Shown here in pieces: positions 1-17,945 of a DNA stretch of 64,000 nucleotides. Position 1 is the first letter of the stretch. Every line of letters begins with the position of its first letter. The stretch covers positions 1 to 64,000 of the forward strand of contig CBFGTS010000020.1 in assembly GCA_965652295.1 (NCBI GenBank), in the 5' to 3' direction. The position numbers and the translations under genes were made by a program. Source of the DNA: an uncultured Haloferula sp. (GTDB lineage: Bacteria; Verrucomicrobiota; Verrucomicrobiia; Verrucomicrobiales; Akkermansiaceae). The notes beneath the pieces were generated by a model. The model was not told where the DNA came from and did no database searches. It saw only the letters and a list, made by a program, of their open reading frames with translations.

Positions 1-648
1 GGCGGGAAAATGGACTGGTCCGTCGTCCGCGAGAAGATCGCCAAGCACGGCATGCGGAATTCCAACGTCCTCGCCATCGCGCCGACCGCCACCATCTCGA
101 ACATCATGGGCACCACCCCGTGCATCGAGCCGAACTACAAGAACCTCTACGTGAAGAGCAACCTGAGCGGCGATTTCATCGTCCTCAACGGCACCCTCGT
201 CAACGACCTCAAGAAGGAAGGCCTCTGGAACCAGGAGATGCTCGACCAGTTGAAGTACTTCGACGGCGAGCTCGATGCCATCGACGACATCCCCGAGGCC
301 ATCAAGACCCGCCACCGCACCGTCTTCGGTGTCGGCTTCGAATACATCGTCGATGCCGCCGCCCGCCGCCAGAAGTGGATCGACCAGAGCCAGAGCGTGA
401 ACCTCTTCCTCGCCCAGCCCGACATGAAGACCCTCAGTCACATGTACCGCCGCGCCTGGGACAAGGGCCTCAAGACCACCTACTACCTCCGCACCCTCCA
501 GGCCTCCAACATCGAGAAATCGACGATCGACGTGAAGAAAGTCACCCGCGGCATCGTCGGTGGAAACCGCGAATACACCGCCGAGGAAAAGATCGCCTGC
601 TCCATCGACGCCATGATGAACGGCGGCGAGTGCGAGGCGTGCCAGTGA
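1..648 (+). CDS. nrdA: Ribonucleoside-diphosphate reductase alpha subunit, C-terminal part (gene begins before the window)
   Basis: Motifs GMRNSNVLAIAPTATIS, IDQSQSVNL, GLKTTYYLRT (tyrosine pair) and C-terminal redox CxxC (CEACQ); stop TGA 646-648. Confidence 0.97.
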   Translation, partial: GGKMDWSVVREKIAKHGMRNSNVLAIAPTATISNIMGTTPCIEPNYKNLYVKSNLSGDFIVLNGTLVNDLKKEGLWNQEMLDQLKYFDGELDAIDDIPEAIKTRHRTVFGVGFEYIVDAAARRQKWIDQSQSVNLFLAQPDMKTLSHMYRRAWDKGLKTTYYLRTLQASNIEKSTIDVKKVTRGIVGGNREYTAEEKIACSIDAMMNGGECEACQ

Positions 649-1547
649 CGCAACTGAAGTCGAGAGACATCAACCTACCCGGCAAGGCCTTGAAAGACTT
701 CGAAAAATTTGAATCCAAGGTCTTGTCGGAGATCCTTGATTCCTTCTCTAACATAACTGAGATCGGTTGGGGGGCCCAAAAGAAGGTCTTTCGTGCGTCC
801 ACCAATGACGGAGACGCTGTCGCTCTAAAGGCCGGAAAGTATCGCTCTTCGAAGCAATTGGAGCGAGTTCAACGAGAAGTGGACTTCTTGGGTCAAGCTG
901 CCTTAACCCAATTTCCAAAGCACAAGCTATTCTCCTACGATGTCGGCACACGGGAGTTCCTGATCGTCGAGGAGTTCATCAACGGAAGAAACCTTTCCAA
1001 TTGCATTGCTTTATTCAAAACTCCCGGTTCCATTTTGCAGTTGCTGTACTCTTGCTGCCTCGCGATGTCACCTGTGTGGGAAAAACGGGTGGTTCATCGT
1101 GACCTAAAGCCGGATAATATCCTAATTCGGGAAGACAGTCATTCGCCTGTTATTATTGACTTTGGTATCGCCCGATTTCTCAACCACAGCTCCTTGACAG
1201 ACAGTCGCGCCCTCCAAGGTCCCTGCACTCCTATTTACGCGGCCCGCGAGCAACTCACGAATAGGAAAGTCGCCATCGATCACCGGACCGATTTCTTTGC
1301 ATTGGGTGTAATCGCCGCAGAACTGTTGTATGGGCGCCACCCATTTTCTCCCGAAGCTGTGCAAAGCGAGAACGACCTAATCGAAAACGTGATTGAAGGG
1401 ATTTACTTCTTGCCTGAAGTAGCTGACCCAACGAACTTGAGAATCCGCTCGCTAATTTCGCGCCTTATTGATAAGGAGCCATTTAGACGCCCTCGATCTC
1501 CCCACGCAGTGCTTGGGGAGATCGGTAGCCTCCTTGCATCGTCATGA
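645..1547 (+). CDS. Hanks-type Ser/Thr protein kinase (stand-alone kinase domain, ~300 aa)
   Basis: IGWGAQKKVF Gly-loop, VALK, HRDLKPDN, DFG, TPIYAAREQ, DFFALG. Start re-assigned to GTG 645, overlapping the nrdA stop (GTGA); the upstream part of ORF 120..1547 is a shadow of nrdA. Confidence 0.9.
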   Translation: MTQLKSRDINLPGKALKDFEKFESKVLSEILDSFSNITEIGWGAQKKVFRASTNDGDAVALKAGKYRSSKQLERVQREVDFLGQAALTQFPKHKLFSYDVGTREFLIVEEFINGRNLSNCIALFKTPGSILQLLYSCCLAMSPVWEKRVVHRDLKPDNILIREDSHSPVIIDFGIARFLNHSSLTDSRALQGPCTPIYAAREQLTNRKVAIDHRTDFFALGVIAAELLYGRHPFSPEAVQSENDLIENVIEGIYFLPEVADPTNLRIRSLISRLIDKEPFRRPRSPHAVLGEIGSLLASS

Positions 1548-2704
1548 AAATTTACCACCAGACTGGCTTCAGAACCAACTGGAACTTGGAGTCCCACATC
1601 CGTGACGGTGTCGGGAGTGGCGTCATTTGGTCGCCAGTAAATGAATCACTGAGCACCTTAAAGAAACTAAATCCCGAAGTTCGGTCACGAAGCTTCTTGG
1701 ATCCGCAGCTCTACTTGCCACATGACCAAAAAGGAAAGCTGAAAACCTATGGTTATTCACCAGAGGAAATATCCCCTCGGTGGAAAACCTCTGATTTTGA
1801 TTCCATCAAATACGAGTCTGCTGATCAATGCCTAAAGATTCAAAGATCCGCCAAATTTGCGTATGATGTGATTCCTGCTCGCTACGAGAAGGACATTATG
1901 GTAGATCACTTCGAGCGAGCTTCTGAAGATTTTGTCGCTCCCTATATCGAATTGCGAGCAGCACAGCCCATCAATCCCCCTCTCCTTCTTTCGGTAATCG
2001 CAAAAAGAATTCAAGTTGTCGATCCGCATTGCCGCAACGAGCTTTTAAATTGGATTACCAGTCACCAAGAGATTGCTGGGGTATACATAATTTTCGATTC
2101 GGAAAGTAACTCAAAGCAAATCAAGGACTCCGTATTTTTAGAGGGTGCGCTTCGGATAATTTGGGGATTAAGGCAAAACAACCTAGAGGTTCATGTGGGT
2201 TACTGTAATACGGAGGCTATTCTGTATGCCATTGCAGATCCGAACTCCGTGACTATAGGGAGCTACGAGAATCTTCGGCGGTTTTCCATCGGCCGTTTTG
2301 AGGTCAAAGAAAAAACTGGTGGGAGAAGTCCTAATCCGCGACTTTATGTTGCAGGTCTCCTTCAATGGATCGAATACGGCTATGTTGGGGCGTTGGACCG
2401 GTTAGCCCCAGAATGGAGAGCCCTGCGACACAATAATTCCTATGAACTTGAGATGTTCACTCCGAGCTTCCAGTGGCATTTCGCGAAGCCGCAGATTTAC
2501 AAGCACTACTTTACAACCATGGCTCACCAAGTGAGCATTCTTGAGGAGGATATTATAGCGAGGAGGGCTCAAGTTATTAATTGGATTGATATTGCTCTCC
2601 AGTGGTTCGATTTGATTCGAAGTAAGAACGTTCTATTGGACTCTGATAGCGATGGGTCACATTTGAGCCATTGGAGGAACGCGATATCCCTCTTTCAGCA
2701 ATGA
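1544..2704 (+). CDS. Uncharacterised 386-aa protein, possibly TIM-barrel-like (beta-protein/sce7725-like is a guess)
   Basis: Long AT-richer ORF with ATGA overlaps at both ends; motifs GVIWSP and FLDPQLY; alternating beta/alpha pattern. Family not certain. Confidence 0.8.
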   Translation: MKIYHQTGFRTNWNLESHIRDGVGSGVIWSPVNESLSTLKKLNPEVRSRSFLDPQLYLPHDQKGKLKTYGYSPEEISPRWKTSDFDSIKYESADQCLKIQRSAKFAYDVIPARYEKDIMVDHFERASEDFVAPYIELRAAQPINPPLLLSVIAKRIQVVDPHCRNELLNWITSHQEIAGVYIIFDSESNSKQIKDSVFLEGALRIIWGLRQNNLEVHVGYCNTEAILYAIADPNSVTIGSYENLRRFSIGRFEVKEKTGGRSPNPRLYVAGLLQWIEYGYVGALDRLAPEWRALRHNNSYELEMFTPSFQWHFAKPQIYKHYFTTMAHQVSILEEDIIARRAQVINWIDIALQWFDLIRSKNVLLDSDSDGSHLSHWRNAISLFQQ

Positions 2705-3240
2705 AAGGTCCACTAGCCCGGATCTGCAGCTTTGCAACAGAGTCTGAAATGGGAGAGAATTTCATTTCTGCCATTGAGCCGAGGATGCGCTTCAATCAGA
2801 TCGTGGCGAAGCGTGAGTTTAAAGCTCCGCAAGGGATTCCTGATTTCCTGTTATTTCGGCGATGTGATTCGACTCTCGTATATGTTGTCGCGCTAGAGTT
2901 GAAACTGAAAGATTGGCGAAAAGGAATTTATCAGGCATTCAAATATAGAAGCTTTTGTAACGCTGCCTACGTCATTGTAGATCGCTATTATCAGGATGAC
3001 GCCCTCGCCAATATACAGATCTTCGTTGATTCCAACATTGGATTAGCCACTTTTTCGTTAGAAGGCGAGCTAGAGGTCCTCAGCGAGCCAGTCGCGGATA
3101 TTCCTTTTTCCGCTTATTACTCATCGGTGTTGAATTCGACCTTTAAGAAAGAAGAACCCGGCCTCGAAAAATGCAGCAGATTCCACAGATCCAAAATGGG
3201 AGCCGTCTCTCTGACGAAGCTAGATCCAATGCATTGGTAA
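2701..3240 (+). CDS. PD-(D/E)xK nuclease-fold protein (179 aa)
   Basis: E...GIPDFLL...VVALELKLKDWRKGIYQAFKY matches PD...ExK plus QxxxY; ATG 2701 overlaps the upstream stop (ATGA). Confidence 0.75.
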   Translation: MKGPLARICSFATESEMGENFISAIEPRMRFNQIVAKREFKAPQGIPDFLLFRRCDSTLVYVVALELKLKDWRKGIYQAFKYRSFCNAAYVIVDRYYQDDALANIQIFVDSNIGLATFSLEGELEVLSEPVADIPFSAYYSSVLNSTFKKEEPGLEKCSRFHRSKMGAVSLTKLDPMHW

Positions 3241-3413
3241 CGTCGACATTGAATGTCCAATAAATCACGTAATCAGAAGGGGGTGCGGACCGGGAACATC
3301 GGTATTCTATACGCTCGTTGTGGGAAGTAGTTTGTTGTTGAGTCGCGCGAACTTTTGTGGTAGCCGAAGTCTCGTAAGCTTGTATCGATGTTATGCAAAA
3401 AGCCAAATTCCTA

Positions 3414-3530
3414 AAAGGGGTCGGTCCTAGAAAACAAGCATTCGAAGCTTGACGCGGCTGGCTGGATTTCCGCAGGGTCGGATGCATGGCCCGTCCAGAT
3501 ACCGGTTTTCCAGCGGGCGAAACGGGTTTA
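3414..3530 (+). repeat. Direct repeat copy 1 (~117 bp): RAYT left end and first codons plus a 34-bp extension
   Basis: AAAGGGGTCGGTCCTAGAAAAC...GCATGGCCCGTCCAGATACCGGTTTTCCAGCGGGCGAAACGGGTTTA, near-identical to 3611-3727. Confidence 0.95.
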
Positions 3531-3610
3531 AAAAAGATGCCAGGCATACAGTAGCTTGACGGCTGCTGGCTCGATGAGCTAGAACCCTCGCAATCCGATG
3601 AAAACCAGTG

Positions 3611-3727
3611 AAAGGGGTCGGTCCTAGAAAACGCGCATTCGCAGCTTGACGCGGCTGGCTGGATTTCCGCAGGGTCGGATGCATGGCCCGTCCAGATACC
3701 GGTTTTCCAGCGGGCGAAACGGGTTTA
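3611..3727 (+). repeat. Direct repeat copy 2 (~117 bp)
   Basis: Near-identical to 3414-3530; first ~82 bp also match 3893-3974. Confidence 0.95.
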
Positions 3728-3739
3728 GGATACTTACCC

Positions 3740-3892
3740 ATGAAAAAGATTCTGATGCTCTACCCGGAGTTTCCGAACACGTTTTGGAGCTTCAGGTATG
3801 CGTTGAAGTTCGTTCACAAACGGGCGGCTTTTCCGCCGTTGGGATTGTTGACGGTTGCCGCGATGCTGCCGGAGGCGTGGGAAAAGTGCGTG
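3740..3892 (+). pseudogene. 5' fragment of a B12-binding radical SAM gene, cut off at the RAYT left end
   Basis: [49 protein letters not shown] is the typical N-terminus of B12-binding radical SAM proteins; no remainder seen in the window. Confidence 0.8.
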
Positions 3893-4980
3893 AAAGGGTC
3901 GGTCCTAGAAAACACGCATTCGCAGCTTGACGCGGTTGGCTGGATTTCCGCAGGGTCCGATGCATGGCCCGTCCTCTTCGCTACGAAGCCGCTGGCGCGA
4001 TCTACCACGTGATGGCACGCGGAGACGGTGGAAAGGATGTTTTTGAATCGGACTTCGACCGCCAGGATGCGCTGAAGCGTTTGGAGGAGGTGTGCGGGAG
4101 TTTCGGTTGGCGGGTGCATGCGTGGGTGTTGATGGGCAATCATTTCCACCTGCTGCTCGAGACGCCGGAGCCGAACTTGGTGAAGGGGATGAAGTGGTTC
4201 ATGGGGGTGGTTTCCCAGGCGTGGAACCGACGGAGAAAACGGCGGGGCCATGTTTTCCAAGGGCGCTACAAGGCGGTGGTGGTGAACGGCGAGGGGAGTG
4301 GGATGTATTTCCGAATCGTGGCGGACTACATCCATCTCAATCCGGCCCGTTCGGGCTGGGTGGGAGGAACGACGGGGAAGACCTTGCGGAGCTATCGCTG
4401 GAGCAGCTTTCCGATGTATCTGGCCAAGCGGTGCCCCGACTGGATGGAGACGGGGCGGGTGTTGGGAGCGTTCGAGCTGGCGGAAGGCCGGAAGGGCGCG
4501 GAGTCGTATGGCCGGTATCTTGAGGCGCGGGCAAAGGACCGCGAGGGGGTATTGACGGATGAGGCTCTGAAGGAGTTGAGGCGGGGCTGGTATCTCGGCG
4601 ATGAGGGTTTCGGGGAGAAGCTCGCGGCGGCGATCAAGGGGCGGGTGCCAAAGCGGCGGGCCAGTGTGAGTGGTGGAGCGGTGCGCGCGCACGACGAGGC
4701 GGAGGCGACGCGATTGGTGAAGTTGCTGCTTGAGGCATTGGGTTTGCCGCAGGGTCGGGTGGCGCTGGCTGGTCGGGCGAAATGGCAACGGGAGAAGGCG
4801 CTGGTTTGTGCAACGGTGCGGAAGTGGACAGGCGTGAGCAACGGATGGCTGGCCGATCGGCTGTCGATGGGCCACGTCAGCAGCGTGACCCGGAGTCTGC
4901 GGCGGGTAAGGGAGGAGAGGGACTTGAAAAGGGAGTTGGAGAGGCTGGAGGAACTGCTCGAAATCTAGGACTGACCCCTA
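3893..4980 (+). mobile_element. RAYT/Y1-transposase element bounded by inverted ends
   Basis: Left end GGGTCGGTCCTAGA (3896-3909); right end TCTAGGACTGACCCC (4964-4978) is its reverse complement with 1 mismatch; encloses the transposase. Confidence 0.8.
3964..4968 (+). CDS. REP-associated tyrosine transposase (RAYT, HUH/Y1 family) with C-terminal helical/HTH extension
   Basis: [29 protein letters not shown] (HUH), [14 protein letters not shown] (catalytic Tyr), YRWSS. Confidence 0.93.
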
Positions 4981-5015
4981 GCGCTCCCAGCGCTCCCAGC
5001 GCTCCCAGCGCTCCC
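4980..5015 (+). repeat. 9-bp tandem repeat (AGCGCTCCC)x4 abutting the RAYT right end
   Basis: Directly visible. Confidence 0.97.
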
Positions 5016-5036
5016 TGCCGATATCAAACTTCCCGG

Positions 5037-5411
5037 TTACGCATCGAAAGCCTCGTCGTCGGCCGACTCTCTTTTCTTCGTGGCCAACTCATGTTCGAGT
5101 TCATCGAGGATTTTGAACGTCTCAATGAATTTCAAACCAAAGGGGGTGAAGTGATATTCCACGCGCGGCGGGACTTCTGGGAAGCTCCGTTTTTCCAGCA
5201 CATCGTAGGAAACCAGCAGACGCAGGCAATCGTTGAGAACTTTAGCGGTAAGGCCATCCACGGCGCGTTCCATCGCGCCGGGACGGCGGATGTCCCCCTT
5301 CACGAGATCCACCACCGTCAACGACCATTTGCAGCCGACCACCGTCTCCACCATACGACCGATGCGCCGGGGCGGGACGTGCCGTGAAAATTTTTCCTCT
5401 TTGGTTTTCAT
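5037..5411 (-). CDS. HxlR-family winged-helix transcriptional regulator
   Basis: VVGCKWSLTVV, GLTAKVLNDCLRLL, FPEVPPRVEYHFT; start could also be 5435. Confidence 0.9.
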   Translation of the reverse strand: MKTKEEKFSRHVPPRRIGRMVETVVGCKWSLTVVDLVKGDIRRPGAMERAVDGLTAKVLNDCLRLLVSYDVLEKRSFPEVPPRVEYHFTPFGLKFIETFKILDELEHELATKKRESADDEAFDA

Positions 5412-5557
5412 CAATTCATACCGGTTTGTGCCCACCCCACCGGATTATGCCCGGTTTCCCGATCAAGCAGGAACAGTAGTGTGACGGCGTTCGATTTCAC
5501 GGCGGGATTCTTCGCTGAGGATAATCGCCACTCAAACCAACCACAAAATCGGAAATC

Positions 5558-6316
5558 ATGAAAAACGCACTGATCATCGGCGGTTCGACCGGAATGGGCT
5601 TTGACGCAGCCCATCGTCTCGCTGCACGCGGCGCGGCGGTGACCATCGCCGGACGCAACACCGTCAAACTCGAAAAGGCGGCCGCCACGTTGCGGGAAGC
5701 AGGCGCGTCCCGGGTCGCTATCAAAGCCGTCGATCTCTATGAACGCGAACAGGTGGACGCATTCGCCCGGGAGATTCTCGCCGGGCCGGCGTTCGACCGT
5801 GTCGTGAACGCGGCCGGGTATTTCTCCCCCACACCATTCCTCAAGCACACACGGGAAAACTATCGGCAATACCATGGCATCAACGAATCGCTTTTCTTCC
5901 TCACTCAGGCGGTCGTGCAGCGGATGGTGGACACCGGAGCCCCAGGCAGTATCGTCAATATCGGCTCGATGTGGGCCAAGCAGGCGATCAAGGCGACGCC
6001 GTCGTCCGCCTACTCGATGGCCAAGGCGGCCTTGCATTCGCTGACGCAGCACCTCGCGATGGAGCTTGCCGATCACGGCATCCGGGTGAACGCCGTATCG
6101 CCGGCTGTGGTGGATACGCCCATTTACGGCGCGTTCATCAAACCGGAGGAAATCAGCGAGGCTCTTTCGGGCTTCAACACGTTTCATCCGATCGGCCGGA
6201 TAGGCACCCCCACTGATGTCGGAGCAGTGATTGATTTCCTTCTGAGCGACGACGCCAGCTGGGTGACGGGTGCAGTATGGGACGTGGACGGCGGAGTGAT
6301 GGCCGGCCGCAACTGA
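5558..6316 (+). CDS. Short-chain dehydrogenase/reductase (SDR)
   Basis: [19 protein letters not shown] (YxxxK), [13 protein letters not shown]. Confidence 0.95.
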
Positions 6317-6966
6317 AGCACCCGGGACATCAAGGCGACCTCGACCCGGAGGCGACCGACCCCGACCGCCCTCGAAGCGAACTTCGAGAAATCCCTTGCG
6401 AAGATCTGGTACTACTGACTCCGACGGATCTTCAAATACTCCTCCTCGCTCTTCTGATTCATGATTCTGGACACTGCTTTCACCCGGGTGTCATTCTTTC
6501 TGACGCAACGGCCTCCGACAGCCGATTCCTCAGTCCCTCCCCGGTCTCATTCTATTTGGCGCAATGCGCTGGTTGGAGACGCGGATGCCACCGCGATCCA
6601 AGTCGGGCTGCCATCGCTTCATCCAGGCTGGAGTTATGCCGCCTGCCGCAGCCCAGGCCCGGTCGCGAGGGATCCGCTGGAGTTCATGCGGATCGATATT
6701 TCCGAAGGTCCGCTGTCGCCGTGATCTCCCCGCGACCCCGACAGGAAAACGGAGCACTGAGAACGAGCCGTCTATTTTCATGGCCGACACGGAATCGCGT
6801 GGACATCGCAGGCACTCCTGTTAGAAAACGTTCAAAGGATCCACTCACCACGAAAATGACCTCAAGCCACAGGCCATGCGCAAGACCTGGCCGATCTGGA
6901 AGAAGTCCGACCTTCCAGCCCCGATTACTGAAAGCTCCCGAACAAACGCGAATCTCGGGGGTCGGG

Positions 6967-7025
6967 AAAAACATCTGCAGCCTCGACGCCATGCTCAACG
7001 GTAGACGTGTGAGGCATGCCGGTAA
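6967..7025 (+). pseudogene. Frameshifted relic of the nrdA 3' end
   Basis: Reads KNICSLDAMLNG-(2 nt)-TCEACR-stop versus intact KIACSIDAMMNGGECEACQ-stop at 589-648. Confidence 0.85.
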
Positions 7026-7046
7026 CCACCCATCCATTTCCTCACC

Positions 7047-7553
7047 ATGATTCTTCCACTGATGACCGGTCACCGATCACTCGGCACTTTCTTCACTACC
7101 TTGTTGCTTTCTTCGATCCTGCCAAGCTGTACTCCATCGAGTTTGCCACCGGTGGCTCCCAGCGAGTCGTATGAGGTAGGGATGCAGACTGCCCCTCCTG
7201 ATCAATCAACGCAGCCGCCAGCATCCGAGAAATCATCCCTCGTTGGAACATGGGAAGAAGATGCCTACTATGGGGATGTCGACGCGAAATCGAAGAGGGC
7301 CTACATCGCGATCAACGACAATGGAACGTGGAAGGAGTGGCGCAACGGGAGCTTGATCAACGAGGGGTCGTGGAGCGGCAGTGAAGCTTCGAGCATTGCT
7401 TGCAGTCTGACGGATGAGGAGGATGGGGAGAATCTCGAATGGTTCACCTTCAACCTTCAATCGGAGAAGAAGGCGGTTTACAAAGCCCACCCGGAAAGGA
7501 TGGATTCGGATGAATATGACGATCTGGAGTTTGATCGTCTGGAGGCTGAGTAG
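7047..7553 (+). CDS. Hypothetical lipoprotein (acidic, lipocalin-like 'LVGTW' motif)
   Basis: Hydrophobic N-terminus with LPSC lipobox-like motif; start uncertain. Confidence 0.6.
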   Translation: MILPLMTGHRSLGTFFTTLLLSSILPSCTPSSLPPVAPSESYEVGMQTAPPDQSTQPPASEKSSLVGTWEEDAYYGDVDAKSKRAYIAINDNGTWKEWRNGSLINEGSWSGSEASSIACSLTDEEDGENLEWFTFNLQSEKKAVYKAHPERMDSDEYDDLEFDRLEAE

Positions 7554-7783
7554 CGGCAACACCGGCGAGGCCTGCCGCCATCCATCCGCCCTATAAGAAA
7601 GGATGGAATGAGGAGAGCGGTAGGGGTGGATGGTCAGGTGCCGGATAAAGCGGCTTCGAAACTCATCTGACGGGTAGGCTTGGGATTTGCCAAGCGATCC
7701 CCCCGACTGGCAGCGGATGGCGTCACGAGACCGATTCGCTGAAGGTTTTGGGCAGAAGCTGCCGTATCGCGGGCTTCGTGGAG

Positions 7784-9427
7784 ATGAGATGCGCCCTTTT
7801 CTGCTTTGTTTCGTGGATTCTGCCGATCGCTGCGCTGGTGGCGGAGGATGCCAAGCGGCCGAACATCCTTTTCGTCTTCGCGGATGACTGGGGCCGTCAT
7901 GCGGGGGCCTACGCGGCGGTGGATGGGCCCGGCTCGATCAACGACGCGGTGCGAACGCCGAACTTCGACCGCCTCGCCGATGAGGGCGTGTTGTTCAGGA
8001 GCGCCTTCGTGTCCGCCCCGAGCTGCACGCCCTCGCGGAGTGCGATCGTCTCCGGGCAGCATTTCTGGCGGACCGGCCGGGCTTCCATCCTCCGCGGGGC
8101 GGTGTGGGACGGGTCACTGCCTTCCTATCCGCTCCTGCTGCGCGACGCCGGCTATCACATCGGGAAGATGTACAAAGTCTGGAGTCCGGGCGCTCCCACG
8201 GATGCTCCTCATGGCGGGAAGCGGCATGCCTACGAGGCATCCGGGACCCGGTTCAACCAGTTCTCTCAAACCGTCGCCCGTCGCCCCGGAGGCACCTCAC
8301 CTGAGGATGCGAAACGGAAGCTCTATGCCGAGGTGCGGGCGAACTTCGACGCCTTCCTTGCGGATCGGCAGGAAGGGCAGCCGTTTTGTTTTTGGTTCGG
8401 CCCCACCAACGTTCACCGCCCGTGGGTCAAGGGCTCGGGGCGGTCCTTGTGGGGCCTGGATCCCGATTCCTTGAAAGGGAAGCTGCCGCCGTTCCTGCCC
8501 GACGTTCCCGAGGTGCGCGAGGACCTTGCCGACTATCTAGGCGAGGTGATGGCCTTCGATGCGGCGCTCGGCGTGCTGACGGACCGACTGGAAGAGCTGG
8601 GCGAGCTGGACAACACGGTGGTGGTGGTGAGCGGCGACCACGGAGCCGCGGGATTCCCGTTCGGAAAATGCAATCTCCACGACTTCGGTTCGAGTGTCGC
8701 CCTTGCCATTCGCTGGGGAGACGCGCGTGGTGGTCGGGTCGTCGATGACCTCGTCAGCCTGACCGATCTTGCCCCGACCTTTTTGGAACTGGCGGGGGCA
8801 CCGGTGCCGGAATCGATGACCGGACGAAGCCTGGCGCCGCTGCTTGTGTCAGACCGCTCCGGCCAGGTCGATGAGGCCCGCGATGCCGTATTCATCGGGC
8901 GGGAACGGCATGTGGAGAACGCGCGCGAGGGCTATCTGCCCTACCCGCAACGCGCCATCCGGACCGCGGAGCATCTCCTGATCGTCAATTTCAAGCCCGA
9001 CCGCTGGCCCATGGGCGAGCCCTACCGGCTCGACGGCCCCCATCCGCCCACGTCGACCGAGATCGCCTCCAACACGCGCGTCACCCTGCCCGACGACGAT
9101 GCCAGCCCGACCAAGGCTTGGCTGGTGTCCCATCGGCACGACCCGAAGTGGGGACCGTATTTCGAGCGCGCTTATGGCAAGCGTCCGCGGGTGGAACTCT
9201 ATGAGCTGGCGAGTGATCCCCACCAGATCCGCAACATCGCCCGGGAGCCCGCCCATGCGGAAACCGCGGCGCGCCTGGAGAAACGCCTGATGGACGAGCT
9301 GATCCGCACCGGAGATCCGAGGGTCAGGAACGACGGCCGCTTCTTCGAAACTCCGCCCATGGCCGGCCCGACCGGAGAAGCGGGATCGCTCAGTCCCGCG
9401 GAGCTTCGGGGCGGCCCCGGGGAGTGA
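7784..9427 (+). CDS. Formylglycine-dependent sulfatase (S1)
   Basis: RPNILFVFADDWG, SCTPSRSAIVSG (CxPxR), SGDHG, ELYELASDPHQ; signal peptide. Confidence 0.95.
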   Translation: MRCALFCFVSWILPIAALVAEDAKRPNILFVFADDWGRHAGAYAAVDGPGSINDAVRTPNFDRLADEGVLFRSAFVSAPSCTPSRSAIVSGQHFWRTGRASILRGAVWDGSLPSYPLLLRDAGYHIGKMYKVWSPGAPTDAPHGGKRHAYEASGTRFNQFSQTVARRPGGTSPEDAKRKLYAEVRANFDAFLADRQEGQPFCFWFGPTNVHRPWVKGSGRSLWGLDPDSLKGKLPPFLPDVPEVREDLADYLGEVMAFDAALGVLTDRLEELGELDNTVVVVSGDHGAAGFPFGKCNLHDFGSSVALAIRWGDARGGRVVDDLVSLTDLAPTFLELAGAPVPESMTGRSLAPLLVSDRSGQVDEARDAVFIGRERHVENAREGYLPYPQRAIRTAEHLLIVNFKPDRWPMGEPYRLDGPHPPTSTEIASNTRVTLPDDDASPTKAWLVSHRHDPKWGPYFERAYGKRPRVELYELASDPHQIRNIAREPAHAETAARLEKRLMDELIRTGDPRVRNDGRFFETPPMAGPTGEAGSLSPAELRGGPGE

Positions 9428-9433
9428 GCGGGA
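9410..9433 (+). repeat. 24-bp direct repeat copy 1 (spans the sulfatase stop)
   Basis: GGCGGCCCCGGGGAGTGAGCGGGA, identical at 12464-12487. Confidence 0.9.
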
Positions 9434-9592
9434 GGAACGGAGAATGCCGGTAACAAACTGGCCGACAAGATGGGGCATGACTCTATTCGGGTGGGCTCGT
9501 CATTCAGGAAAAAAGAAAAAGATGCCAAGCCTACTTTGGTCCGGCGGGCTTTGCCACCACGACAGGTCCATGCTCTGCTGGGGACGCTTTCG

Positions 9593-10621
9593 ATGAGCAG
9601 CCCCGGCCCAACAGTAAAGAAGCGCAGGCGTATCTGGAAACCGCTGCTGAGCGGCATCGTGGTGATCGTCACCTTCGCCTATTTCAACAATGCCTCATGG
9701 CTCGCCAGCCGGCCGGTAGGGAGACCTTTCCTCCTCGCACACCGCGGCGTATCCCAGACTTTCGAGTTCACCGGAATCCGCGGAGACACCGACACCTCGA
9801 AGCGGATTCATCCGCCCGCCCATCCCTATCTTGAAAACACCATCGCTTCGATGGAAGCGGCATTCCGCTGCGGTGCGGACATGGTGGAATTCGACATCCA
9901 GCCGACCACCGACGGCCATTTCGCGGTCTTTCATGACTGGATCCTCGACTTCCGCACCGATGGCAAAGGGGTGACCCGCGAGCACACGCTAGCGGAACTT
10001 CAGCGACTCGACATCGGCCACGGCTACTCGGCGGACGGGGGCAAGAGCTTCCCTTTCCGGGGCAAGGGCGTCGGCCTCATGCCGTCGCTGGATGAAGTGC
10101 TGGCGAAGTTCCCCGACCGGATGTTCCTGATCAACATCAAGAGCGACGACCCCGAGGAGGGCCGCAAGCTCGCGGAGGTGTTGCGGCGCTTGCCCGCCTC
10201 GCGCCGGGCGGAGCTTTCCGCGTATGGAGGGGATTTGCCGATGGCCTCGCTGAAGGCGGAGCTCCCGGATCTCCGAGTGATGTCGAAGGCGACCTTGAAG
10301 AAGGGTCTGGTTTCCTATGTCGTTGTCGGCTGGACCGGCTACGTTCCGGAAGGCTGCAGGAATGCTCAGATCCATGTGCCCGAGAAGTATGCGCCGCTCC
10401 TGTGGGGCTGGCCGGACCGCTTCCTGAACCGGATGGAAAGGGCCGGCTCGCGCGTCATCCTCGTCGCGGGAGACGGTGATTTTTCCAAGGGTTTCGACGA
10501 GGTCGCGGATCTGCAGCGCTTGCCCGCGGGCTACACGGGCGGGATCTGGACCAACCGGGTCGACCGCATCGGTCCGCTCGTGAAGCCGACCAGTCCCGGC
10601 CTTGGAAAGAGAGAACGTTGA
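9593..10621 (+). CDS. Glycerophosphodiester phosphodiesterase family protein
   Basis: LLAHRG, ENTIAS, VEFDIQPTTDG, VFHD, INIK, GIWTN; N-terminal TM helix. Confidence 0.92.
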   Translation: MSSPGPTVKKRRRIWKPLLSGIVVIVTFAYFNNASWLASRPVGRPFLLAHRGVSQTFEFTGIRGDTDTSKRIHPPAHPYLENTIASMEAAFRCGADMVEFDIQPTTDGHFAVFHDWILDFRTDGKGVTREHTLAELQRLDIGHGYSADGGKSFPFRGKGVGLMPSLDEVLAKFPDRMFLINIKSDDPEEGRKLAEVLRRLPASRRAELSAYGGDLPMASLKAELPDLRVMSKATLKKGLVSYVVVGWTGYVPEGCRNAQIHVPEKYAPLLWGWPDRFLNRMERAGSRVILVAGDGDFSKGFDEVADLQRLPAGYTGGIWTNRVDRIGPLVKPTSPGLGKRER

Positions 10622-10673
10622 GAGGTGAGACGAAACGACACATCGGTGGCGACCTGGGTCCAACGTTTGGGCC

Positions 10674-11309
10674 TTATTCCCCGGCATCGAGGACTTCGAG
10701 AAGCTCCTTCAACCGCTGCCGGCGCGGGAGCAGTTCACGGAGGGCCGTGCGGCGGGAATTGTCCACGACGACCACGGTTGATCCCACGATGAAGAGGATG
10801 ATCCCGATGTGGAATGCGCCGAAAGGCTCGTTGTTGATCTGGATGATGAGCCAGTAGAGCAAACAAGCGGCGAGCGTGATGGGGACCACGGACACCAACG
10901 TTCCTTCCCACCGTCCGGTCAGTGACAGTTGGTAGTCGATCAACGACAGGTTGCGCCTGATTTCCTCGCGCAGCGAATTGCCGAACCCACGTTCGCGCAT
11001 GGCTTGGCGTTTGCGGCTCACCCAGAGCGAGCTGGCTCCGATCAGGATCGCGAGTGTACCCAAACCCGCCGCCACGTAGTCCCACGCCGTGCGCGGATCG
11101 TCGTCGAAGTAGATCGCGGGAAAGAAGAGGATGAGCAGCGCCAGCATGAAGGCACTCGTCCCATAGAAGGTCCAGTTTTCCAGCCGCAGCTGGCGGCGGA
11201 TGTCCGCCTGCTCATGCTGGATGACGAGCTGGAGGAGATCCCGGTTGATGCCGTAGAGCGGCGTCTCGTTCTGAGCGCGCCAAGTGGTGATCATTTCATC
11301 GAGGTTCAT
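10674..11309 (-). CDS. Four-TM membrane protein, probable anti-sigma partner
   Basis: MNLDEMITTW N-terminus, four hydrophobic segments, overlaps the ECF sigma 3' end. Confidence 0.75.
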   Translation of the reverse strand: MNLDEMITTWRAQNETPLYGINRDLLQLVIQHEQADIRRQLRLENWTFYGTSAFMLALLILFFPAIYFDDDPRTAWDYVAAGLGTLAILIGASSLWVSRKRQAMRERGFGNSLREEIRRNLSLIDYQLSLTGRWEGTLVSVVPITLAACLLYWLIIQINNEPFGAFHIGIILFIVGSTVVVVDNSRRTALRELLPRRQRLKELLEVLDAGE

Positions 11310-11808
11310 GGTACGACTCCTTTGCGAGTTTGTCGGCCAGCGCCGATTTGATGCGATTGATCTTCACGCCGACGTTGCTTTCGGTGAGACCGAGGATCCG
11401 GGCCATCTCGCGATAGCTGAAACCGTCGAGCATCAGCAGGGCGAGCGAGCGGTTGCCTTCGTCGAGTTCCGAGATTCTCTGGTAGATCCAATCCAGGCGG
11501 GGGTCCCGGGTGGCAGGAGCGGTGAGGAGGGGGCTGACCGATTCGAAATCCTGCCGATCCCGGTGGTGTTTCCGTTCTCGCCGGTTCCAGGCAAGTGCCG
11601 TGTTCAACGCCACCCGATAGATCCAGGTGGCGGGGGCCGAGTCGCCGCGGAAGGCGGGCACGGAACGCCAGATCTGCAGAACGATTTCCTGGAAGAGATC
11701 CTCGCGATCCACATGGGTGGATCCGTAGGCGCGCGTGACCTTGAACACGATCGCCTGGTGCGCCTCGATCCATTCCCTGAAGATTTCATTCCGTTGGGCA
11801 TCGTGCAT
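11296..11808 (-). CDS. ECF sigma-70 factor
   Basis: DREDLFQEI, WIYRVALN, GFSYREMARILG, NVGVKINRIK. Confidence 0.93.
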   Translation of the reverse strand: MHDAQRNEIFREWIEAHQAIVFKVTRAYGSTHVDREDLFQEIVLQIWRSVPAFRGDSAPATWIYRVALNTALAWNRRERKHHRDRQDFESVSPLLTAPATRDPRLDWIYQRISELDEGNRSLALLMLDGFSYREMARILGLTESNVGVKINRIKSALADKLAKESYHEPR

Positions 11809-11921
11809 ATCGACCTTTACCCAGTTAGTAGCAGGTCGGCCTGGATTTCTTACGCTGGATGGAGGCGAAACCGAGGGGGGCTGTGAAATGGGGCTGTCGG
11901 CGGGGTCGTTCACCGGGTTCC

Positions 11922-11959
11922 AAAAAGAAAGCGGTGGTGACCCTCAGGGCCACTACCGC
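11922..11959 (-). terminator. Probable intrinsic terminator
   Basis: Hairpin GCGGTGGTGACCCT-C-AGGGCCACTACCGC followed on the minus strand by TTTCTTTTT. Confidence 0.55.
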
Positions 11960-11996
11960 CTTGGAAGAGGGAGGCCAACTCAGCTGACTCCCGGTT

Positions 11997-12469
11997 TCAC
12001 TTCGAGCCTCCCTGCGGAGTGGGGCGGCGGACGATGCGGAGTTTGCCGCTATTACCCCCGCCGCAGAAGAAGCGGTCCCGACCGTCGGACTCGAGGCCGG
12101 AAACTCCGACATCGGGCGGCATGACGAGGCTTTCCAGCACCTCACCCGTGTGAGGATCGACCCGGCGCAGCTCGCTGGGGACGTTGTCCTCCCATGTCCC
12201 GTGCCAGAGATCTCCCTCGACCCAGGTCACTCCGGTGACGAATCGGTCGGAAGAGATGGTCCGGAGGATTGCTCCCGTTTTGGGATCGAGTTGAAGGATC
12301 TTTCCGGCCTCCGCCTGGCCGATCCAGAGGCTTCCCTCGGCCCAGGCGAGGCCGGAGTTGTCGTCCGCGCTCGGTGCCGGAATGCTGCCAAGCACTTCGC
12401 CGCTTTCGGGATCGATTTTTTGAATCACTCCGTCGCGATCTGATAGAGATGACGGCCGTCGAAGGCGGC
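11997..12469 (-). pseudogene. 5'-truncated, frameshifted glutamine-cyclotransferase-like beta-propeller gene
   Basis: AFDGRHLYQIA in one frame shifts near 12435 to DGVIQKIDP...SGLAWAEG...FVTGVTW...SGLESDG; N-terminus replaced by the 24-bp repeat. Confidence 0.75.
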
Positions 12470-12487
12470 CCCGGGGAGTGAGCGGGA
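12464..12487 (+). repeat. 24-bp direct repeat copy 2
   Basis: Identical to 9410-9433; followed by GCCGCCAAGATGGGAGCA, similar to GCCGACAAGATGGGGCA at 9461. Confidence 0.9.
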
Positions 12488-12539
12488 TGAGCCGCCAAGA
12501 TGGGAGCAACATCGACTAACTACTGTTAGTAAGGGTTCC

Positions 12540-13265
12540 TCAGAAGAGCCCGAGGAACTTCTGCGGCGTTTCCGCGATCCGTTTCATCTCCTTTTTGTAG
12601 GCGTCGGGCACGTTCGACCTCCGGATCGACGAGCGGCGGATCGACGGGTAATAGTTCGAAATCCTGGAGGCATCCGTTTGATATTCATCGGTGATGATCA
12701 CGAAAGCAGCTCCTGGAACCCTCAGGCCGATGAGGTTCTTGCCGTAGATGGACACCGGCTGGATGCGGCCCACATAAGTGGCTTCGCCGGGCCTCACTTG
12801 GAACGGAACGTCCATCGGCAGCCGGTTTGAAAAAGTGACGCCAGCGGTGATCGCATAGTCCTGGATGGTCCAGTTGGTGATAGAATAGTTTCCAGCTGGA
12901 ACCGGGACGGCGACCACCTGGCTGTCAGTTCCACCGCCGATCATCAGGGGATGGCGGTTCACCGGCATCACCATCGGCATCAGCGCGGCCGATGGCCCCG
13001 AATCTTCTCCTTTGACTCCCACGATGGCCCGCCCGGAGCCGTCCACGGTTTCCCCATCGCGATTGAACGATTTGGCCGAGAAGGTCGCTACGATCCACCC
13101 TTCACCCGGTTTCAGATTCGCCGCTGCCTCCGGTGTCAGGGGGTAGCGCACGTTGGCACAGGAGGAAAAGCCGATCGCCATCGCCACGGCCGACAGGGCG
13201 ACCATGAGTCGGCTGGCTTTCGAGTGAAGGACCGGCGGCAGGAGGGGCAGAGCAGGCATCGGCAA
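12540..13265 (-). CDS. Hypothetical lipoprotein
   Basis: Lipobox-like FSSC after a hydrophobic stretch; VPAGNY and PGEATYVG motifs; start uncertain. Confidence 0.7.
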   Translation of the reverse strand: MPMPALPLLPPVLHSKASRLMVALSAVAMAIGFSSCANVRYPLTPEAAANLKPGEGWIVATFSAKSFNRDGETVDGSGRAIVGVKGEDSGPSAALMPMVMPVNRHPLMIGGGTDSQVVAVPVPAGNYSITNWTIQDYAITAGVTFSNRLPMDVPFQVRPGEATYVGRIQPVSIYGKNLIGLRVPGAAFVIITDEYQTDASRISNYYPSIRRSSIRRSNVPDAYKKEMKRIAETPQKFLGLF

Positions 13266-13493
13266 GAGGTTAGAAAGGCTGATTATCGGGTGTCACGGCG
13301 AAATCCAAAACTCACCGCTGGAAATCTTTCCACTCTAACACAGGCTATTCGCCGTTCCAAGGTCGCGCTGGATCTGCCTCGACGATGTGGATCACAGGAT
13401 CCGTTGCGACGGTGGGTACGGGATGCTTTCAGGTGCCGGAGGTGCCCCGCCTGGAGATTGACAGGGGGAGAGCACTCGGTTGGTCTTCACGCG

Positions 13494-14228
13494 ATGCGCA
13501 TCCTGTCCGTCCTTGTCGTCCCGCTCCTCGCCCTAACGTTGAATTCTTGTGTTGGGATGCTCAATCCGGCCGGGCTGGTCGAGAAGGGTAAAACCTGCGT
13601 GGTCGCCACGGAGGTCCGTAATGAGGCGGATTTCCACCATGTCGGCTTCACGGTTTTCACCAGCCGGACCAAGACCTTTGAAGTTCCGGGTCTGAGAGAG
13701 ATGACCTATCGAGTGATCAAGGAAGAGCTTGGTTCGGCGTATCGGATCATCGGTCAAGAGACGATGCCCGACCACGGCTCGGTTCCCGTTTTCAAAAGGG
13801 CGGCCGCGTATCAGGAGAAGATCCGTGAGATCGCCGCCAGGAGAAACGCCGATCTGGTCATCCAGTTGGGCACGTTTTCCTACTATCCCTATGGGGTGCC
13901 GAGTGGAATGAGGAGCGATGGTTTCGGTTACTACGGGGGAAGCCGAGGAACGGCCGTGGGATACTGCTCGCTGAGCATCCACGACGGAAAGACCGGCAAG
14001 CTGATCAAGACCTATCTTGGCGGCGAACAGTGGAGGATGTCGGAGATTTTCGATGCGGACTATCGTTCGAAATGGAATACCGACGGCTCACGCAAGGTGT
14101 CGCTGGAGGGGGAGCTGGGTGCCGGAGGTTTCGCGTCGTTGAGCGCCGCTGACAAGCAGACCCTCATGAGGGCCTTCGAAGATCTCTTCCGGCGGAGAGT
14201 CCGCGGAATGAAGAAGTCGGGCGAGTGA
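13494..14228 (+). CDS. Hypothetical lipoprotein
   Basis: MRILSVLVVPLLALTLNSC signal/lipobox; start re-assigned within ORF 12951..14228. Confidence 0.72.
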   Translation: MRILSVLVVPLLALTLNSCVGMLNPAGLVEKGKTCVVATEVRNEADFHHVGFTVFTSRTKTFEVPGLREMTYRVIKEELGSAYRIIGQETMPDHGSVPVFKRAAAYQEKIREIAARRNADLVIQLGTFSYYPYGVPSGMRSDGFGYYGGSRGTAVGYCSLSIHDGKTGKLIKTYLGGEQWRMSEIFDADYRSKWNTDGSRKVSLEGELGAGGFASLSAADKQTLMRAFEDLFRRRVRGMKKSGE

Positions 14229-14630
14229 CGGCCCGCGCCTGGAGTGATCGGTGCGGTATACAGTAGGACGGCCGTGCTGTGAATCGACTAGGATTCAAGC
14301 AATTCGATGGAACCAACGCGACAGAGAATCTTGACCCGGTCGAAGAGTCCGGTCTGCCGGCGGGGCATGTTGCCTCCATGATTCTGCACGTGGTGTCGGG
14401 GGGGGCGCTGAAAGCGGCTCGGAGGCTTGTTCCGGCCACGGATGATCCGGAACGAGGGGGGCATCTCGATCCTCTACGTCGATAGGGGCTCACCTGAGGT
14501 CGGAAATCAGGTAATGCCTTCAGAGGATCTTTGCTGCATCCGATAATGGGTGAAATGTTGCGATGTCTGATAGTCCGCATGATTTGATTTCTCTTGAGCC
14601 GCAAACGCGAGGTTGTCAGTTTCTCGGTCC

Positions 14631-15194
14631 ATGAAAGCATTCGTCTCGCTGTTCAGCTTCGCCCTACTGACCGCCGCGGCTCCGGCTGCACTGACTCTTT
14701 CGATTCAGGAGGTCGGTGCCGACGTCGTCATCAACGTGAGCGGTAATCTGGATCTCACCGGCGCCACCTTGACCAATGAGACCAGCAGTGTCTTTTCGGT
14801 GTATGTGAATCCGACGAGTAGCGCGGTGACCACCCAGTCCGGCAACGCGGACAACTACGCCACGATCGACGTCTTCGACGTCGTGCCGGACTCGCTGGGA
14901 ACGGGCGGGTTCACCGGCGGAGGCTCCGGGTCCGGCGATGTCTTCTCCGTCACCGAATTCAGCCTCTTCCTTCCCGACGGCTATGTCTCAGGAAACGCCT
15001 TGAGCGGATCGTCCACTTTCTCGAACGCCACGCTGGCTTCCCTCGGTTTTACCGTGGGTGACTATCAGTGGGTGCTGAAAAGCGGCGACACCATCGACGC
15101 GACGGTCGCGGTCCCCGAACCGTCGGTTTTCGTCCTCGGACTCGCCACGCTGGCTGGTTGCACCGCCGGTCGTCGCCGTCGGCCCCTGGCTTGA
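14631..15194 (+). CDS. PEP-CTERM sorting-domain protein
   Basis: Signal peptide; C-terminal VPEPS, TM helix, RRRR. Confidence 0.9.
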   Translation: MKAFVSLFSFALLTAAAPAALTLSIQEVGADVVINVSGNLDLTGATLTNETSSVFSVYVNPTSSAVTTQSGNADNYATIDVFDVVPDSLGTGGFTGGGSGSGDVFSVTEFSLFLPDGYVSGNALSGSSTFSNATLASLGFTVGDYQWVLKSGDTIDATVAVPEPSVFVLGLATLAGCTAGRRRRPLA

Positions 15195-15412
15195 TTCCGA
15201 CGGGTTTTTCATCCGGACGGGTCGAGCAACGTTCGCGATTGGATTTCTGAGGTGAGGGAGCCCTGATTTTGCTGCGGTTGGGGTCGCCGACCAAGAATGG
15301 GCGTTCCTTCCGAAATGATGAATGACCTTCGACGATTCTGCTACGAGGCATCCCGGGCCCTCGGTGTTGTTCTGGTCCCTCGATCACGGCTGAATCGTGC
15401 TACCTCGAGCAT

Positions 15413-15650
15413 TCCAACCTGCTGACCGACGCGAGTTTTGAGGGGATCCTGACCACAGATGGGGCTCCGTTCACGGCGAGCTGGGAGGGTTTTTCATGGA
15501 GCCCAAGTTCTTCGGATTTTGGCTCCACTTCGCCGAGGACAGGGGGGCAAGCGCTGGAAATGACGATTCCGGGGGAGGTCAACTCCGTTGCGAGGGGCAT
15601 TCCAGGATGTTGTGTTCGGCTCCGCCTACGCGGGATTGATGGCGTGGAGA
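15413..15650 (+). pseudogene. Possible decayed secreted carbohydrate-binding-like gene fragment
   Basis: SNLLTDASFEG..GAPFTASWEGFS..PRTGGQALEMTIPGEVNSVA then frameshift to GAFQDVV; no start codon. Confidence 0.35.
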
Positions 15651-15857
15651 GAATCGGCGACGAGTGCTTGGAGGAGGGTCCGGTGGATCAAATGGTTGTT
15701 CCGGGCCGGCGGGAAGTCGCATGAATTCCGAATGGGTTGCTCTTGGGAGCTTGAATCCAGGGGCCGACATTGCCTGAACGCTGCGTGCAAAAAATGCCCG
15801 AAGCACGTGAGGGCGGTCGGGTGGACAGGTCCGGGAAACGGCGTGAGGGTGGCAGCT

Positions 15858-16520
15858 ATGAAAACGAGAAACGTCGCCACTCCGTGGATAGCTGCGGTGG
15901 CAGGGTTCGCTCTACTAACCTTGGGGATCGAGGCGAAGCCGGGGAAGGGGAACGACAAGGGGGGAGGACCGCCGGCCCAAGCCGGGAAGGGGAACCCAGG
16001 GAAAGGGGGAAAGCCCGACAAGGGCAATTCGGGGCGGCCGGCACAGGCGGGTGGCGGGAAAAAGGATTCCGGGCCTCCGGCTCACGCGGGTGGTGGCAAG
16101 AAGGACTCGCCATCGGCGAAACCGAACGTTCAGAACAAGAAGGCGGCGCGGGCTCAGGCGGATTGGAACGACGACCGGCGGCATCGCGCCCGCTTCGTGG
16201 ACCGCGACCGAACGCGGATACTCAACTACTTCGAGGGCTACCGCGATCGGGAGCACGGCCTGCCGCCGGGGCTCGCCAAGAACCTCGCTCGTGGAAAACC
16301 CCTGCCGCCGGGCTGGCGGAAGAAGCTGGAGCCGGGAGTGGTGATCGCCGATGACTGGTGGGACCGCTTGGTGCCGCTGTCCTATTCTCTGTTTCCCGAG
16401 ATCGATCCCATCGCCGACACCGGACTCTATTGGTATGGGGACCGCGTCTATCGGGTCTACGAGCCGCGGCGGGAAATCATCGATGTGGTGCCGGTGCCAT
16501 CGATCCACATCGATCTCTGA
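15858..16520 (+). CDS. Secreted low-complexity protein with GLPPGLAK/LPPGW motif (RcnB-like C-terminus)
   Basis: Signal peptide, G/K/P-rich repeats, GLPPGLAKNLARGKPLPPGWRKK. Confidence 0.75.
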   Translation: MKTRNVATPWIAAVAGFALLTLGIEAKPGKGNDKGGGPPAQAGKGNPGKGGKPDKGNSGRPAQAGGGKKDSGPPAHAGGGKKDSPSAKPNVQNKKAARAQADWNDDRRHRARFVDRDRTRILNYFEGYRDREHGLPPGLAKNLARGKPLPPGWRKKLEPGVVIADDWWDRLVPLSYSLFPEIDPIADTGLYWYGDRVYRVYEPRREIIDVVPVPSIHIDL

Positions 16521-16702
16521 GGTTCGGGTGACGGAGTGGCGGCCTTGGCGTTTCCTCTTGCCGACTCCGGCATCACTCATTCGTCGACTTTCCCTTGGAT
16601 CTCCGCTTCTGGAAGCAGCGTTTCCGTCGGCAAATCCGGAAAACTGGACGAGTGCAAAAAGGAGGTGCCGGAGTGCCGGCACCTCCTTCTCTTCATCCAG
16701 GT

Positions 16703-17461
16703 TCAGCGGAATCCGCCGCTGATATAGAGGGTTTCGCCGGTGATCCAGGAGCTGTCCTCCGACGCGAAGAAGGCGACGGCGCTGGCGATGTCCTGCGGGA
16801 TTCCGATGCGGCCCAGCGGTGTGACGGCGATGGTTTCCTTCTGGAAATCGCTGCCTTCGATACCTGCGGCGACGGTGCCTTCGGTGGTGACCATGCCGGG
16901 ATTGATGGAGTTCACACGGATCCCGCGGGGCCCGAGTTCCTTGGCCAAACTACGGGTGGCGGCATCGACGGCGGCTTTGGTGCCGCCGTAGACCGCGCCT
17001 CCGGGAAGGCCGTGAGCGGCGGCGACCGAGCTGATGTTGATGACGCTGCCGCCTTCCGCGGGGAAGTGCCCGATGGCGGCCTGGGTGGTGAGGAGCAGGC
17101 CGAGGACGTTGATGTTGAACTGGCGGTGGAAGTGCTCCGGGGTGATCTCTTCAAGCGGCGCGAATTGATAGACGCCGGCGTTGTTGACGAGGATGTCGAT
17201 TTTTCCGAAGGCGTTGACGGTCTCCTCGACGAGACGGGTGATGTCATCCGGCTCGGCGACGCTGCCGTGGAGGGCGATGGCATGGCCACCCGCGGCTTGG
17301 ATCTCCGCGGCGACGCGCTCCGCTCCCTCCTTGTCCGAGGCATAGTTGACGACGACCGAGGCTCCCCGGGCGGCGAGTTCACGGGCGATGCCCGCGCCGA
17401 TTCCTTTGGAGGCTCCGGTGACGAGGGCGACTTTTCCGTGCAGTTGGTTTGTAGTGCTCAT
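16703..17461 (-). CDS. SDR oxidoreductase (glucose-1-dehydrogenase/FabG-like)
   Basis: TGASKGIG, NNAG, YGGTK, IRVNSINPG. Confidence 0.95.
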   Translation of the reverse strand: MSTTNQLHGKVALVTGASKGIGAGIARELAARGASVVVNYASDKEGAERVAAEIQAAGGHAIALHGSVAEPDDITRLVEETVNAFGKIDILVNNAGVYQFAPLEEITPEHFHRQFNINVLGLLLTTQAAIGHFPAEGGSVINISSVAAAHGLPGGAVYGGTKAAVDAATRSLAKELGPRGIRVNSINPGMVTTEGTVAAGIEGSDFQKETIAVTPLGRIGIPQDIASAVAFFASEDSSWITGETLYISGGFR

Positions 17462-17527
17462 GGTTGTTGCTGTTTGTGTATACGGTGAGAAAACAAGTAA
17501 CAATTAGGTTCAAAAAAAGGGGGAGGG

Positions 17528-17944: not shown

Positions 17945-17945
17945 G

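Follow-up and report, generated by a model that had tools for sequence, protein, structure and literature searches.

The window, a 64,000-nt stretch at the start of contig CBFGTS010000020.1 from an uncultured Haloferula sp., begins inside the host gene nrdA, which encodes the large subunit of class I ribonucleotide reductase (RNR). Directly downstream, three genes follow on the plus strand. They code for a Hanks-type Ser/Thr kinase (gene 1), a predicted TIM barrel with the fold of the tRNA-guanine transglycosylases (TGTs; gene 2) and a predicted PD-(D/E)xK nuclease (gene 3; Table 1). Together they constitute one conserved, horizontally mobile unit which is likely to be an undescribed anti-virus system. 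An earlier interpretation based on the letters alone (the sequence-only reading) had proposed three AT-richer reading frames chained by 4-nt overlaps behind nrdA. Coordinates, overlaps (GTGA at 645-648 between nrdA and the kinase gene, ATGA at 1544-1547 and at 2701-2704) and low GC content were all confirmed, and the upstream gene is indeed the RNR large-subunit barrel. None of the three frames contains an internal stop. The GC contents of genes 1, 2 and 3 are 0.50, 0.46 and 0.46, those of nrdA and the genome 0.61 and 0.635. None of 3307 tiled 2.6-kb windows of the genome is as low as the trio with 0.473. The 5' part of nrdA was found on another contig of the same genome (C28). In two different studies, contigs run across the junction between nrdA and the kinase gene without differences (X1, possibly from the source sample, over positions 1-1569; X4 over 601-890). 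The junction is therefore not a misassembly, and an assembly artefact was rejected.

Table 1. Features at the left end of the window (all coordinates refer to the window).
Feature	Position	Strand	Evidence and remarks
Gene 1, Hanks-type Ser/Thr kinase	645..1547	+	300 aa from GTG; PF00069 E 1e-31
Gene 2, predicted TIM barrel with TGT fold, unnamed family	1544..2704	+	386 aa; predicted model
Gene 3, predicted MmcB-like PD-(D/E)xK nuclease, probably distantly related to P4 cII / sce7726	2701..3240	+	179 aa; motifs and model
Host nrdA 3' end (class I RNR large subunit)	1..648	+	PF02867 E 2e-50; GC3 0.93; landing site, outside the system
nrdA-kinase junction	634..648	+	GAGG 7 nt ahead of GTG; GTGA overlapping the nrdA stop
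Right flank, outside the trio	3414..4968	+	three copies of a 117-nt element end (3414, 3611, 3892), then Y1/REP-associated tyrosine transposase (3964-4968)

Via gene 2, 93 further loci were collected (61 genome, three viral and 23 metagenome contigs and six loci from whole-genome searches), leaving out the window's own locus and one marginal partial match. The trio is complete in 81 of them, and the other 12 are cut by contig ends, no more than 91 bases away on the missing side. The co-occurrence check suggested by the sequence-only reading hence came out in favour of a three-gene unit. In 68 of the complete loci all genes are in line, in 11 the nuclease gene is convergent and in two it comes first; the kinase gene is located directly ahead of the barrel gene in 81 of 81. 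The same rule holds in subfamilies that are just 17-23% identical, and pairwise identities for one gene rise and fall with those for the other two (Spearman 0.88-0.94, 77 trios). Gene 2 is broken in two of the first 64 loci (L030, L050). The tree of trio loci comprises 14 phylum-level groups, one of them archaeal. Within the window's genus, just three of 35 genomes contain gene 2, and their copies belong to three different clades (32% and 22% identity); in the phylum it was found in 6 of 401 genomes, one of these marginal. A housekeeping operon was rejected on account of this patchiness.

Among 114 of 170 listed neighbours that were scanned, defence-type genes (TIR-SIR2, DUF4007, DUF3800, methylases, Xre-RES, Fic) and mobile-type genes (integrases, IS21, P4-type primase) were found. 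Type I hsd genes are located at most 1.6 kb from the trio in 16 of the 93 loci. The scan yielded one QueA and no Pfam match for QueC, QueE or a CD-NTase. No trio matches were detected in annotated phages and none, by DNA search, in E. coli genomes; plasmids gave three weak matches. On one viral contig (L074:5713-11878), a trio with convergent nuclease gene is located directly after a P4-type primase, which recalls the satellite setting of gop-beta-cII. At L056:12223-16630 and beyond, the genes after the trio encode DUF4007, a protein of 1166 aa and a kinase-containing protein of 1240 aa.

Gene 1 encodes a Hanks Ser/Thr kinase with the complete set of K, E, HRD-K-N, DFG, E, D and R residues, as the sequence-only reading had stated. 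In 57 aligned relatives, K62, E78, H151-R152-D153, K155, N158, D172, G174, E202, D216 and R282 are invariant. Matches in PADLOC and NCBIfam (mad6, PD-T4-6, PknB) are unspecific and fall far short of the cut-off wherever one is given. The GTG start at 645 is uncertain, because it places 43 residues before the Gly-rich loop, a stretch that is longer in just 5 of 59 other kinases with this motif (first-start rule), and because in-frame TTG codons at 690 and 723 offer alternatives.

For gene 2, the sequence-only reading could name no motif with certainty, and this was borne out: the protein (P0002) has no match in Pfam, PADLOC, NCBIfam or PHROGs and none in the PDB by sequence, and 48 relatives also lack a Pfam match. 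The family is not small, with 399 relatives among representatives at 50% identity. A model built from 129 sequences (predicted local distance difference test, pLDDT, 96.8) was compared with 48,161 solved chains, and the top four fold matches all belong to the TGT family: archaeosine TGT (Z 19.7, root mean square deviation 3.4, 289 aligned), bacterial TGT (Z 18.3), QTRT2 (16.4) and DpdA (15.0). Unrelated barrels (Z at most 13.0) and Cap10 (12.8) rank below. Gene 2 is thus predicted to be a TIM barrel specifically of the TGT fold, which settles in the affirmative one question of the sequence-only reading. Foldseek on the PDB returned generic barrels only. In BFVD, putative phage TGTs were matched weakly, and no entry named P4 beta was among the 50 matches listed. 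A profile comparison with TGT revealed no similarity; the template profiles were shallow (13 similar sequences for beta, 30 for TGT), and beta failed against TGT, too.

Among 135 gene 2 sequences, D53 is invariant, and Q55 (134), Y/F57 (133), P111 (134), G239 (133), R245 (129) and F247 (132) are almost so. By strand order and the motif order of the TGT from the same genome, D53 and Y57 would correspond to the DSGG-F/Y motif that follows strand 3, but no residue would take the part of either the strand-4 Asp or the strand-8 nucleophile. This nucleophile is D279 in QTRT1 and D248 in Cap10. None of the 135 sequences has Asp or Glu at positions 236-241, as placed by the same strand and motif order. 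TGT and DpdA carry a Cys3-His zinc site. In gene 2, only a single Cys column exceeds 40% (C96, 88/135). Apparently, the barrel lacks both the catalytic Asp of TGTs and the zinc site. Since it seems to keep just the Asp and the aromatic residue after strand 3 and to have lost the nucleophile, binding of a guanine-like ligand or of the kinase is more likely than base exchange. Longer or fused forms of gene 2 were not found in the search, which is weak evidence.

These residues also bear on a Dpd-like modification-restriction system, in which the barrel, as an active base-exchange enzyme, would mark self DNA, and unmarked DNA would be cut by the nuclease. The DpdA match speaks for it, and D53, Q55 and position 224, which is acidic in 113 of 135 sequences, could make up an altered active site. 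The lack of an acid at positions 236-241, the absent zinc cysteines and the lack of any QueC/QueE gene in the 93 loci argue against it, so that its chances appear slim. DpdA of the Dpd system and Cap10 of type IV CBASS (cyclic-oligonucleotide-based anti-phage signalling system; 10.1101/2025.04.06.647259) resemble gene 2 in fold and in the invariant Asp after strand 3 but differ from it: gene 2 has neither the acid at the inferred catalytic position nor the zinc site, and the trio has no QueC partner, CD-NTase or Dpd genes.

Gene 3 is predicted to encode a PD-(D/E)xK nuclease, both by its fold and by the residues E...PD...ExK...QxxxY. The pattern PD...ExK...QxxxY noticed in the sequence-only reading is well conserved: E14, E39, G45, D48, E66, K68, W72, Q78 and A79 occur in all 64 sequences compared, Y82 in 58 of them. 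The model (pLDDT 91.6) matches SPO1766 (3dnx; Z 9.7), PaqCI (9.3) and a repair endonuclease (8.1), and it resembles MmcB-like phage proteins (E 9e-8). By sequence, the protein (P0003) has no match in Pfam, PADLOC, NCBIfam, PHROGs or the PDB. NF033832 (sce7726) is matched weakly by three of nine relatives, at 14-18 bits with a cut-off of 70. The nearest named Atlas cluster has Phage_P4_cII on 48% of its members (score 0.86), which is a lead only. Since the conserved E14 precedes the next Met and close relatives comprise 175-180 aa, the ATG at 2701 is supported as the start. One convergent gene 3 relative has a MarR-type HTH insert.

In the sequence-only reading, the trio was tied to ribonucleotide reductase and demand for deoxynucleoside triphosphates (dNTPs). 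A module functionally linked to RNR and expressed under such demand would be in line with the overlap with the nrdA stop, with GAGG at a 7-nt spacing and with the absence of a terminator-like site between nrdA and the kinase gene. However, none of the 93 other loci (flanks of less than 1.5 to 10 kb) contains an nrdA-like gene, and the same-genus trio copies are located on contigs other than their nrdA end. Moreover, GTGA and GAGG at the junction are formed by the last codons of nrdA itself. As nrdA ends with CAG-TGA in 8 of 25 genus members, and CAG-TGA always spells GTGA, the overlap by itself is not beyond chance. An RNR-linked role as a family trait is largely refuted, and a functional tie to RNR is very improbable.

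Instead, the site is a cassette hotspot. Relatives match the window up to the nrdA stop only. The GC content after nrdA is at most 0.55 in 18 of 23 genus genomes with a flank of at least 800 bases versus 0 of 20 after tgt (two and one short flanks, respectively, were dropped). Low-GC inserts were found behind nrdA in 11 of 13 relatives read further, and their cargo (L077-L088, L143-L165) is different in every genome. From these flanks, 37 and 39 of about 74 genes, chosen for low GC, were scanned. PADLOC matches, obtained in 9 of the 11 inserts, were to TIR, E1-E2-JAB, a PRTase with CARF, an NsnA-like protein with ATPase, PDC-M60A-C, two methylase cassettes, SIR2 and again TIR. Pfam adds patatin, dCTP deaminase-like, DpnII and ORC-CDC6-like proteins; no integrase was among the cargo genes scanned. 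Probably, the trio resides behind nrdA because this spot takes up differing foreign, often defence-like genes in related genomes, and an nrdA-specific function was rejected. A second copy of the nrdA end is present downstream in 5 of 23 genomes, which suggests that cassettes enter by replacing the end of nrdA; in the window, positions 649-20000 contain no such copy. A contig from run X5 tracks nrdA to position 644 with six differences in 168 and then diverges from the window. No published description of the hotspot was found in the literature search.

Read-through from nrdA into the trio is plausible as a property of the site in this one genome, because a terminator-like site is lacking and the hairpin after the nrdA stop is weak, with 21 of 24 relatives folding a stronger one. 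In this strain only, it may express the cassette. A promoter scan yielded four sites versus 2.8 expected and is uninformative.

As in the sequence-only reading, the trio could not be assigned to a named system. PADLOC 2.0 provided no match for genes 2 and 3 of the window or of 10 relatives. In the literature consulted, including PMC12839542, 10.1101/2024.10.26.620412 and PMC13092281, the trio was not found; subscription journals and newer DefenseFinder models, which might contain a version with a kinase, were outside this scope. Stk2, PD-T4-6, MADS (mad6) and KKP share the Hanks kinase domain with gene 1. However, gene 1 is a bare kinase of 270-300 aa across the family with two obligatory partners that, according to the profiles tested, none of these systems has, and a phosphatase is missing. 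PrrC is an accessory effector lodged in a type I restriction-modification (R-M) operon, and the order hsdR, trio, hsdS in several loci is reminiscent of it, but the trio is a three-gene unit and mostly located outside R-M operons (77/93).

The closest likeness is that to gop-beta-cII of P4. There, gop and beta are in line and cII is convergent. Gop is reported to be toxic unless Beta is present, and the three genes together to confer protection against lambda and P1 (PMC9122126). A preprint on TIM-B unites Beta with the TGT family and proposes TIM-B as a constitutive negative regulator. Its text, taken without Figure 6B and supplements, lists HigB, REase, Pol-beta, GNAT, sirtuin, RES, caspase, 2TM, metallopeptidase and PAACC as effectors, among which a kinase is absent (10.64898/2026.10.19.760177). 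Both arrangements have in common an effector gene followed by a TGT-related barrel gene, plus a PD-(D/E)xK nuclease gene that may be convergent and overlapping. In addition, the motifs of gene 3 are in register with P4 cII over 116 columns of the profile comparison, albeit weakly (E 0.014).

There are also differences. PF14350 (Beta_protein) matched neither P0002 nor 48 relatives nor four distant ones, while the P4 Beta control reached 4e-56, and hhalign of gene 2 with 13 Beta sequences yielded a probability of 0.2%. The second question of the sequence-only reading, a Beta-protein match for gene 2, is thereby answered in the negative, and because the PF14350 test failed with a working control, the trio was not filed as a TIM-B member. 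Furthermore, TIM-B is said to keep residues equivalent to the TGT active site (10.64898/2026.10.19.760177). Its effectors vary and, in the list just given, include no kinase, whereas the trio here is invariant. Gene 3 is devoid of the C-terminal extension of cII (179 versus 264 aa). None of 11 beta-family loci (L131-L141) has a kinase neighbour within 1.5 kb. Cases with flanking cII-like nucleases number 6 of these 11, and several have apparent Zn-peptidase genes, as assessed by eye.

What the sequence-only reading had envisaged as a three-component defence or toxin-antitoxin system stands as a conserved, mobile and unnamed unit in a defence-type context. A role in defence or conflict of some kind is probable. 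More specifically, the trio might act as an abortive-infection system, for which we consider the chances to be about even. Here, the TGT-fold barrel would hold the kinase in check before infection. A phage signal, possibly a guanine-like ligand, would lift this restraint, and the released kinase together with the nuclease would arrest or kill the cell. By analogy with the layout shared by gop-beta-cII and TIM-B, the kinase would occupy the toxin slot and the barrel would be both negative regulator and sensor. This proposal is favoured because the trio is built like a TIM-B system, except that a kinase takes the place of the listed effectors and the barrel belongs to a family of its own. It draws further support from the fixed co-occurrence and co-varying identities of the three genes, their patchy spread, the type I hsd and other defence-type neighbours, the PADLOC-matching genes in the slot behind nrdA and the TGT-specific fold.

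Modification-dependent restriction makes use of the same fold in another way: the barrel would read 7-deazaguanine or another modified guanine in phage DNA and direct the nuclease, and the kinase would merely gate the latter. This would fit a TGT/DpdA fold that apparently keeps the base-reading Asp and aromatic residue and apparently lost the nucleophile, as well as a fully conserved nuclease site. The trio's position inside type I R-M operons, as seen in 16 of the 93 loci (often in the order hsdR, trio, hsdS), would suit a back-up against modified DNA. On the other hand, it is the kinase-barrel order that is invariant, while the nuclease gene moves or flips in 13 of 81 loci. Moreover, where the second base-reading Asp (on strand 4) would be expected, 134 of 135 sequences have Pro. 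On balance, we regard such a mechanism as unlikely. A similarly unlikely elaboration would combine several elements. In it, a widespread immune system, the TGT-derived barrel would be a receptor for modified guanines (deazaguanine DNA of phages or its nucleotides) and switch on a eukaryote-like kinase which licenses the nuclease. In this lineage, such systems would be exchanged at the nrdA 3' end, with cassettes replacing the end of the gene and riding on a transcript induced by phage infection or dNTP stress.

Tight overlaps, patchy spread, integrase and IS neighbours and the many copies among housekeeping genes would also be expected of a selfish addiction module (toxin-antitoxin) that stabilises islands without an anti-phage role. 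However, the slot is filled in relatives by CBASS-like, R-M, SIR2, TIR and PDC genes, and three catalytic-type domains would seem to exceed the needs of addiction. This possibility is therefore rated as distinctly improbable.

Several observations weigh against an abortive-infection system regulated by the barrel. The analogy to Beta is based on layout and fold class only, since gene 2 shares neither sequence nor profile similarity with it, and the catalytic mapping of gene 2 follows strand order rather than a residue-level superposition. The window kinase deviates from its relatives at two places: the APE motif reads ARE (residue 201, window 1245-1247; Pro in 58/62), and the Gly-rich loop has Ala where 59 of 62 have Gly. 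The hsd-adjacent loci belong mostly to related Bacteroidota and perhaps reflect few events, with L071 and L125 being independent. Many trio loci are surrounded by housekeeping genes (suf, metK, uvrB, gcvT). Finally, PADLOC matches were obtained in 9 of 11 inserts behind nrdA, but in a scan of selected low-GC genes and with no matched control flank scanned.

If the trio protects against phage, the few defence systems with a TGT fold (Dpd, type IV CBASS, TIM-B) would gain a new family of barrels and a branch under kinase control. With just three genes, it would also offer a convenient way to learn what a TGT-fold protein does when the usual nucleophile is absent. The nrdA hotspot is useful in its own right, as it supplies candidate defence genes from a lineage that has been little studied, among them cassettes without library match. 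Two low-GC multi-gene cassettes behind nrdA without Pfam or PADLOC match, L078:1361-4295 (genome G014) and L087:1288-4179 (G027), are candidates for defence systems of a new kind. At L081:11525-15323 (G017), nrdA is directly followed by a pair of dCTP deaminase-like genes together with a GmrSD_N/NsnA-like gene and one for an ABC ATPase. The right flank gene of this locus is the same as in L079 (G013), which instead contains an E2-E1-JAB and patatin cassette. To the right of the trio in the window, two copies of the 117-nt element end enclose a short reading frame (about 3740-3890) that resembles the cut start of another gene and has no Pfam match. Transposases similar to that in the right flank also come after the nrdA cassette in G003 and G004.

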